A DNA stretch of 63,280 nt, counting the filler, from Collodictyon triciliatum (taxonomy: Eukaryota): NCBI GenBank assembly GCA_043381765.1. It is 43 parts of 43 records of this genome, joined end to end, with 100 filler letters (N's around TTAATTAATTAA, not from the genome) between each part and the next. Parts side by side here need not be neighbours in the genome. Positions count along the whole stretch, not along the records: positions 2,962 to 4,341 come from JBHJMP010011241.1; 42 more parts are not named here. One strand, 5' to 3'. Within the stretch, counting starts at the first letter, position 1. Each line of letters opens with the position of its first letter. Shown here one piece after another: positions 3,385-4,267 of the stretch. The position numbers and the translations under genes are program-made. The notes below the pieces were generated by a model. It had not been told where the DNA came from. It did not search any database and saw only the letters and a program-made list of their open reading frames with translations.

Positions 3385-4267
3385 CTGGAAATGTCCCCAG
3401 TAACCAAAATGAAAGCAATCAAGAATGAAACAGAGTTGGATGGATTCCGTCGTTGCCACATTCGTGACGCGGCAGCTCTGGTTAGATTCAACTTGGATGC
3501 TTTTATATATATAATTATCGGCTAAGTAAAATCCCATATTTACTAGGCAATATCACTTCTTTGATATCTTTCATACGCAAATTAGGTTTCATATCTATCC
3601 TGGTTGGAGGGAGAGTTGAATAATCCTGACGCTGAGCCGATTACAGAATTCACCGGCGCAACAAAACTGGAGGGATTTAGAAAGTATTTTTTTTTTTTTT
3701 TTTGCATAAAATTAATACAGTTTCATTTTATACAGTGCAGAAGGTTGTTGGCAAGGCACATATATGAATGCTGTAAGTCGAAACATCACACTAATACCAA
3801 TGACAGGGCTACTCAACATTTTGTTGGCTTGAGTTTCGAAAGCATCAGCTCGTCTGGTTCCAACGGGGCCATCGTTCATTATTCTCCTTCTGAAAAAAGT
3901 GCCAAGCTGATTACCAAGGACGAAGTCTACCTGATAGACTCTGGAGGCCAGTACTTGTGAGTTTAATACTACGCATTTATGAACTTATCCAATAACCCGA
4001 AGTTTCCGATCGATTTATATACATTTATTTCTTCGCCGTTCTTGTTCGTTTTGATACGTTCATAAATATTAAGTTGTGATACAATAAACTTTGAATCAAA
4101 TAAAGGAAAAAAAAAGTTGTGATACAATAAAAGAAAAAAATGTATGAGTTTGTGTTCTTGGGGTTACTCGCAATTTAGTATTGTTTTTTTTTTCCAAAAA
4201 AAACTTTTGCGTCCTATAGAGATGGAACCACCGATGTTACACGTACACTGCATTTTGGAGTCCCTAC
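3385..4267 (+). CDS. XPNPEP1: Xaa-Pro aminopeptidase P (M24), partial; exons 3385-3480, 3586-3683, 3807-3956, 4220-4267
   Basis: Spliced motifs [62 protein letters not shown]; GT-AG introns. Confidence 0.93.
4071..4131 (+). mobile_element. 25-nt retro-insertion (CTTTGAATCAAATAAAGG-A7, 4089-4113) with perfect 18-bp TSD, inside an aminopeptidase intron
   Basis: AAGTTGTGATACAATAAA at 4071-4088 and 4114-4131; insert matches the LINE-like tail at 7660-7688. Confidence 0.85.

Follow-up and report, generated by a model that had tools for sequence, protein, structure and literature searches.

Short interspersed elements (SINEs) with LINE-derived 3′ tails, such as eel UnaSINE1 and its partner UnaL2, carry the extreme 3′ end of the partner LINE and are mobilised by the LINE machinery. 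In SINEs, the head carries a Pol III promoter and the 5′ end is fixed. A different kind of LINE-related sequence is the suffix element of Drosophila, which is roughly 265 bp long. Two reports describe suffix as a short retroelement whose sequence equals the 3′ end of a LINE (the F element) and which is found in separate copies as well; it overlaps with the last of the conserved reverse transcriptase (RT) domains and is independently transcribed (PMC1868783, PMC3136478). For LINEs of the L1 clade, a further report gives a peak in target-site duplication (TSD) length at 13–15 bp and describes truncated inserts that are joined to the target directly or by microhomology (PMC4245944).

In the draft genome of Collodictyon triciliatum, we found insertions that consist of only the last 10 or 18 nt of a LINE 3′ end and an A-tail, set between TSDs. 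These micro-insertions are probably extreme 5′-truncated (“tail-only”) copies of an L1-like non-LTR retrotransposon. A keyword search of the literature found no description of tail-only LINE copies of 10–18 nt, although such a search does not prove that none exists.

The stretch of DNA analysed (the window, 63,280 bases) is made up of 43 unlinked contigs of 1366–1388 nt, arranged in roughly falling order of length. The contig joins are 42 identical artificial linkers of 100 nt with the composition N44-TTAATTAATTAA-N44, the first at 1382–1481 and the others at 41 further sites. Thus, any reading across two contigs is an artefact of joining, and the “four copies in ~59 kb” counted by an earlier, sequence-only reading do not belong to one locus; they are four copies in the short contigs of a fragmented draft assembly. 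Short contigs of such a draft are enriched for repeat-bordered DNA. In most contigs of the window, the G+C content is 29–40%, and most end in microsatellites. Eukaryotic features found on them include LINE RT and endonuclease fragments, a NACHT ORF, FG-GAP repeats, and spliced GT..AG introns.

Several contigs carry features of their own. The whole of contig 2 (1482–2861, minus strand) is covered by a 460-aa open frame with a NACHT NTPase domain (E 6.2e-7). Contig 5 holds a 178-aa ORF at 6238–6771 (plus strand) that matches an A32-type packaging ATPase (Pox_A32, PF04665; E 1.5e-6, 28.3 bits vs a cut-off of 22.8); it lies in AT-rich DNA, is followed by short GTGTGAATG-type repeats, and may be a fragment of a Polinton, a virophage or a giant-virus-like genome. 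Contigs 22 and 36 have an unclassified repeat in common (31801–32399 and 52309–52898, opposite strands, 71% over 605 nt).

The motif that defines the tail, CTTTGAATC(A/G)AATAAAGG followed by A's, occurs at 4089–4113 and 28516–28540. As had been noticed from the sequence alone, it also closes a LINE fragment at 7660–7688, and a variant with two mismatches is present at 19437–19454. In the window as a whole, four matches with up to two mismatches were found vs 0.03 expected, and four were reached in none of 100 shuffles; with up to three mismatches allowed, there were five matches vs 0.33 expected. Coincidence, which the sequence-only reading had left standing as a cause of the motif copies, does not account for these counts. 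A motif-like match at 20768–20796 was rejected, as it lies within the ORF of another LINE (E=1.4).

Larger collections were also searched with the motif. In a bacterial and archaeal genome collection of 596 Gb, a 22-nt form of the motif gave 13 loci, all in bacterial records, and none of the 13 was a true relative. The same 22-nt form gave 24 loci in a metagenome scan. One of these, on a 1157-nt contig here called L006, was a true relative; the other 23 were rejected as chance matches in AT-rich, coding-like DNA without a LINE-like flank. In a viral collection, two LINE-specific stretches used as queries gave no match, and the motif itself gave a single match that was not a real relative; this lay on a contig of 14297 nt, which, to judge by its length, is apparently the contig of one of the chance metagenome loci (L013).

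Two of the motif copies sit within direct repeats, as had been reported. Micro-insertion A (contig 3, plus strand) spans 4089–4113 and is made up of A7 and, before it, the final 18 nt of the LINE 3′ UTR with one G>A change. It lies between perfect 18-bp repeats (18/18) at 4071–4088 and 4114–4131; ATATT stands before the first TSD copy, and the target site is TT/AA, where the slash marks the left edge of the TSD. Micro-insertion B (contig 20, plus strand) spans 28516–28540 and consists of the 18-nt LINE tail, identical to that of L006 (18/18), and an interrupted A-tail, A5TA3; its 14-bp TSD copies at 28502–28515 and 28541–28554 differ at one position (13/14). The earlier count of only two copies with clear TSDs has to be raised by one. 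Micro-insertion C (contig 16, minus strand, 23243–23291), which was absent from the first reading and was found by a motif-blind scan, has TSDs at 23291–23276 and 23258–23243 (15/16) around an insert at 23275–23259, in which the terminal 10 nt of the LINE tail (9/10) are followed by A7. A 174-aa ORF spanning this insertion was rejected as coding sequence, being low-complexity and non-coding.

The motif-blind scan covered both strands for A-tailed inserts of up to 200 nt between direct repeats matching at 11/12 or better. It returned 10 rows, compared to 0–3 rows in 10 block-shuffled controls. The three convincing rows were all LINE-tail insertions, namely A, B, and C. Among the remaining rows, three were tandem-repeat artefacts, and two were 12-bp pairs with one mismatch, which is the noise level. 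Two apparent inserts on contig 32 (minus strand, 45778–45973 and 46665–46823) were also rejected as TSD-flanked retroposons. They are related repeat units of about 135–165 nt, dispersed or tandem, with edges formed by similar TTACATNCT...ATTA words; as both copies have similar “TSDs,” these belong to the repeat unit itself.

All three micro-insertions thus have a poly(A) tail (A7, A5TA3, and A7) and a TSD within the range of about 7–20 bp looked for in retroposed copies. The left TSD edges fall at a T-rich/A step in the form of ATATT/AAG, TATG/AAA, and TTCT/AGA for A, B, and C. At the 5′ junctions, 0–1 nt of possible microhomology can be read from the sequence. The inserts are colinear with the LINE 3′ end, matching its last 18, 18, and 10 nt both in L006 and at 7660–7679. 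TSDs of 14–18 bp, A-tails that abut the second TSD copy, and T/A left edges fit L1-type target-primed reverse transcription, and, with the LINE 3′ end present in the same assembly, the earlier proposal that the insertions were made by reverse transcription holds. Chance similarity or an assembly artefact might still be considered, since the assembly is broken into many short pieces (here 43 contigs of about 1.4 kb) and none of the three insertion sites is bridged by an independent contig. However, the excess of motif matches, the three separate TSD pairs, and the presence of the same tail on the independent metagenome contig L006 make such an explanation extremely improbable.

L006 was also informative for the parent element. 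Its relevant reading is on the minus strand, where a 202-aa open frame contains a CX2CX8HX4C knuckle and scores zf-RVT (PF13966) at 32.4 bits vs a cut-off of 27.5. Past one frameshift, a 133-aa frame ends in ITDFFPVLASPR and a stop codon; a UTR stretch of about 75 nt comes next, and then the motif with A10. The part of the parent LINE recovered is the C-terminal ~335 aa. On contig 6, the stretch 7400–7688 is 93% identical to L006 over 289 nt, and the two have a reading frame in common. The 3′ part of ORF2, which is frameshifted and cut by the contig start, lies at 7400–7581 (plus strand), and its frame matches L006 and the protein relatives P0002 and P0007. The latter two stop a few residues past an ITDFF/ITNFF motif that is found at the ORF2 end. 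Judged by the end of the L006 frame, the ends of P0002 and P0007, and the alignment, the ORF2 stop codon is the TAG at 7582–7584, 75 nt before the motif. The 3′ UTR follows at 7585–7679, with the motif at 7660–7677, and A9 at 7680–7688.

With the ORF2 stop at this position, the motif represents the last 18 nt of a 3′ UTR of about 95 nt. It had been taken for the last codon plus stop of the LINE, but the frame GAT GCG CTT TGA has a stop 27 codons upstream, and the true ORF2 end is the TAG. As the motif is 3′ UTR rather than the terminal codon and stop of ORF2, the idea of a cleavage at the stop codon is removed.

The neighbours of the zf-RVT region come from a mixture of animal phyla. A protein search gave 14 matches, and the only full-length relatives found were four of these (1226–1275 aa; E 2.8e-8 to 6.2e-5). 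These four are about 30% identical to the parent, with one short stretch at 38%, and a word search for longer protein relatives found none. Three of the four were scanned for domains; Exo_endo_phos (AP-type endonuclease) and RVT_1 were present in all three, and a weak zf-RVT match, under Pfam's cut-off, in two. One full-length relative, P0010, matched human L1 ORF2p at 7.6e-73. The zf-RVT C-terminus, the full-length relatives with endonuclease and RT, and the match of P0010 to L1 ORF2p mark the parent, at the level of sequence, as an L1-like LINE; the AP-type endonuclease and RT were seen solely in the ~30%-identical relatives.

Other LINE sequences are present in the window. Two copies of a different LINE at 21350–21771 and 56992–57410 are 89% identical over 422 nt on opposite strands, and the one on contig 15 codes for an AP-type endonuclease (Exo_endo_phos_2). 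The stretch 15138–15992 (minus strand) holds a separate RT fragment. Neither could be linked to the parent family, and no link was found for the RT and endonuclease fragments at 14808–16185 and 20715–22090.

Further copies of the parent LINE show how far the 5′ ends are spread. First, contig 37 carries the 5′ junction of an ordinary 5′-truncated copy (54342–54475, plus strand) that runs off the contig end. Its segment 54350–54475 matches positions 189–314 of the reverse complement of L006 with 92% identity over 126 nt, tblastx similarity begins at 54342, and the copy, if complete, would be about 870 nt long. Second, contig 14 holds an older micro-like copy at 19437–19461 (plus strand), with 16/18 of the tail and a stretch rich in A. 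No TSD could be made out around it, no LINE similarity was detected in the 100 nt upstream (p 0.48–0.80), and its LINE similarity ends exactly 18 nt before the end of the tail, a position designated −18 here. Third, a diverged LINE 3′-end copy at the start of contig 4 (4454–4486, minus strand) is colinear over about 33–37 nt, reaching upstream beyond the motif, and is without an A-tail. Its local alignment score is 16–17, compared to an average of 10.1 for shuffled sequence (p=0.003); its motif match (4454–4471, minus strand) has three mismatches and, as a motif alone, is at chance level.

As micro-insertion C holds only the last 10 nt and A7, the TSD-flanked copies begin at −18, −18, and −10. 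The insertions had been said to start at the same base, but C begins 8 nt further in. Over all copies, the 5′ ends are at −10, −18, −18, at least 33 nt (the diverged copy), at least 289 nt, and about 870 nt. Variation of this kind is found in truncated LINE copies, though −18 recurs. The micro copies (three to four) are as numerous as the longer ones (two to three) or more so. Both long copies (7400–7688 and 54342–54475) touch contig ends, as they would if the assembly tends to break at long repeats, and part of the micro excess may be an assembly bias, since inserts of 25 nt leave the assembly unbroken.

The start at −18 is seen in two of the three TSD-flanked copies, and in three of four when the TSD-less copy at 19437 is counted; none of the four micro-sized copies ends between −19 and about −32. 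In a rough calculation with lengths spread over about 30 positions, the chance of two equal ends in three is about 0.06–0.09, and that of three in four about 0.002–0.01. By these values, a real peak at −18, and hence a preferred stop there, is likely, whereas truncation at random would give no such peak. Given the small number of copies (three to four), the recurrence could also be due in part to chance. The copy at −10 and that of at least 33 nt indicated that −18 is not an obligatory start.

Sequencing-run data bear both on the gene around micro-insertion A and on the abundance of the tail. Contigs from X1 and X2, which are RNA-like runs, match contig 3 without mismatch and define an expressed, spliced gene on the plus strand with exons at 3220–3289, 3383–3479, 3585–3676, 3807–3956, and 4220–4267. 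The first two junctions were reported as GT..AG, and the other two come from consecutive pieces of one contig. Since exon 3807–3956 is spliced to 4220–4267, micro-insertion A is intronic, lying in sense orientation in the last intron seen, to which it adds an AATAAA and an A-run. Among the contigs of four runs placed on contig 3, 4020–4065 and 4158–4203 are uncovered and the insertion is unbridged. Many tiny X1 and X2 contigs pile up on 4081/4088–4115, and one X2 contig of 101 nt has 66 nt of unrelated sequence followed by the motif and A's, which implies at least one more motif copy elsewhere. The summed depth over 4066–4111 was 628.6 (X1), 492.9 (X2), and 90.8 (X7), values that are not copy numbers. 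For comparison, the exons gave 16.4 and 5.97, and X7 reached 8.8 over 3238–3329. As a sign only, and not as a copy number, this depth points to an abundant LINE tail.

A discrete micro-retroposon could be proposed from these observations. Its template would be a defined small RNA beginning at CTTTGA, on which the RT runs off the 5′ end, so that the insertions represent a minimal dependent element; the RNA could be cut from the LINE transcript, or it could be a 3′ piece of it that bound protein shields from 5′-to-3′ decay. The exact −18 start of two of the three TSD-flanked copies and of the copy at 19437 agrees with this proposal, as does the 101-nt X2 contig, which puts the motif and A's in another context. 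The tiny X1 and X2 contigs agree with it as well, but polyadenylated LINE 3′ ends fit them equally. Against it, the copy at 23259–23275 begins at −10, the motif lies away from the stop codon, folding and Rfam searches revealed neither structure nor ribozyme, 18 nt are too short for a promoter, and the proposal rests on three to four copies, with no RNA species of such size observed. We consider such an element unlikely.

The description of the insertions as a minimal SINE-like family is likewise not upheld, because two defining properties of SINEs, a promoter-bearing head and a common 5′ end, are missing. Inserts of 10–18 nt are too short to include an internal promoter or a head derived from an RNA gene, whether a tRNA, 7SL, or 5S-like part, and the 5′ end is −18 in two and −10 in one of the three TSD-flanked copies.

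The search for a structural cause of the −18 end was negative. No fold of the RNA was better than shuffled sequence as a potential block to the RT (z-scores 0.2–0.8; UTR 0.23 and 0.31). An Rfam search of L006 at E up to 1 found no ribozyme or other relevant family, the only matches being two weak ones to lncRNAs on the opposite strand (E 0.12 and 0.82). Neither approach thus revealed a self-cleaving ribozyme at the 5′ end. In a related scenario, −18 would be a true, sharp 5′ end dictated by the RNA template, which might be a 3′ LINE fragment that is bound by ORF2 protein and survives 5′-to-3′ decay, and the tail-only copies would form a discrete class outnumbering ordinary copies; this is a minority possibility to which we give little weight.

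The target sites themselves were also compared with the LINE tail. Right after the second TSD copy of micro-insertion B, the flank at 28555–28566 matches the LINE sequence straddling −18 at 12/13 (p=0.004 vs the window background), and the target of micro-insertion A matches the last 8 nt of the tail and A's at 14/15 (p=0.011). Such resemblance of the target to the tail at the right TSD edge would be expected of break-repair patches, in which a chromosomal break captures a short LINE cDNA or RNA with the aid of target–tail similarity. However, nothing comparable was found at micro-insertion C on contig 16 (p about 0.2), and the match on contig 3 consists largely of an A-run, a feature that nick sites of L1 type prefer in any case. 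Furthermore, regular TSDs of 14–18 bp, A-tails that abut the second TSD copy, and T-rich/A left edges are marks of endonuclease-dependent insertion. Break repair is accordingly judged improbable, somewhat more so than a discrete element. The similarity at 28555–28566 is unexplained by the truncation model. The similarities at A and B could be remnants of older tails, an A-rich target bias, or a result of homology-assisted joining.

Aborted target-primed reverse transcription of the parent LINE therefore remains our preferred explanation. First, the LINE endonuclease would nick a T-rich/A site, and the poly(A) of the LINE RNA would pair with the nicked strand. Second, reverse transcription would start normally and abort after 10–18 nt of the 3′ UTR. 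Third, the short cDNA would be joined to a staggered second-strand break with 0–1 nt of microhomology, giving TSDs of 14–18 bp. Position −18 may represent a favoured point of pausing or dissociation, at the border between the AU-rich final 18 nt and the GC-rich UTR upstream. Collectively, the phenomenon is real but mostly an ordinary consequence of 5′ truncation.

Should insertions of 10–18 nt prove as frequent as the few copies seen here suggest, standard repeat annotation would overlook a substantial part of LINE integration, and estimates of LINE activity and of the rate at which reverse transcription aborts in vivo would change. Each tail-only insertion adds an AATAAA signal and an A-run to its site. 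A sharp peak at −18, if true, would help to show at which point, and for what reason, the reverse transcriptase dissociates.

Compared to SINEs with LINE-derived tails, the pieces described here have the extreme 3′ end of the partner LINE in common, but they are without a promoter head or a fixed 5′ end. The nearest named analogue is suffix with the F element, in which a LINE 3′ end also exists as separate copies. Unlike suffix, the pieces in Collodictyon comprise only 10–18 nt of UTR, have variable starts, and are without evidence of independent transcription.

The closest likeness is to the 5′-truncated insertions of the L1 clade, which are 3′-anchored and have an A-tail, TSDs of about 14–18 bp, a T-rich/A nick, and 0–1 nt of microhomology. 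The parent also resembles this clade in its zf-RVT C-terminus and in its nearest full-length relatives, which carry an AP-type endonuclease and RT. Two differences stand out. First, in contrast to truncated L1-clade copies, the insertions hold just 10–18 nt of element sequence, which is far below the normal detection of repeat annotation. Second, micro copies equal the longer ones in number here, a proportion uncommon among L1-type elements, and the −18 end recurs.
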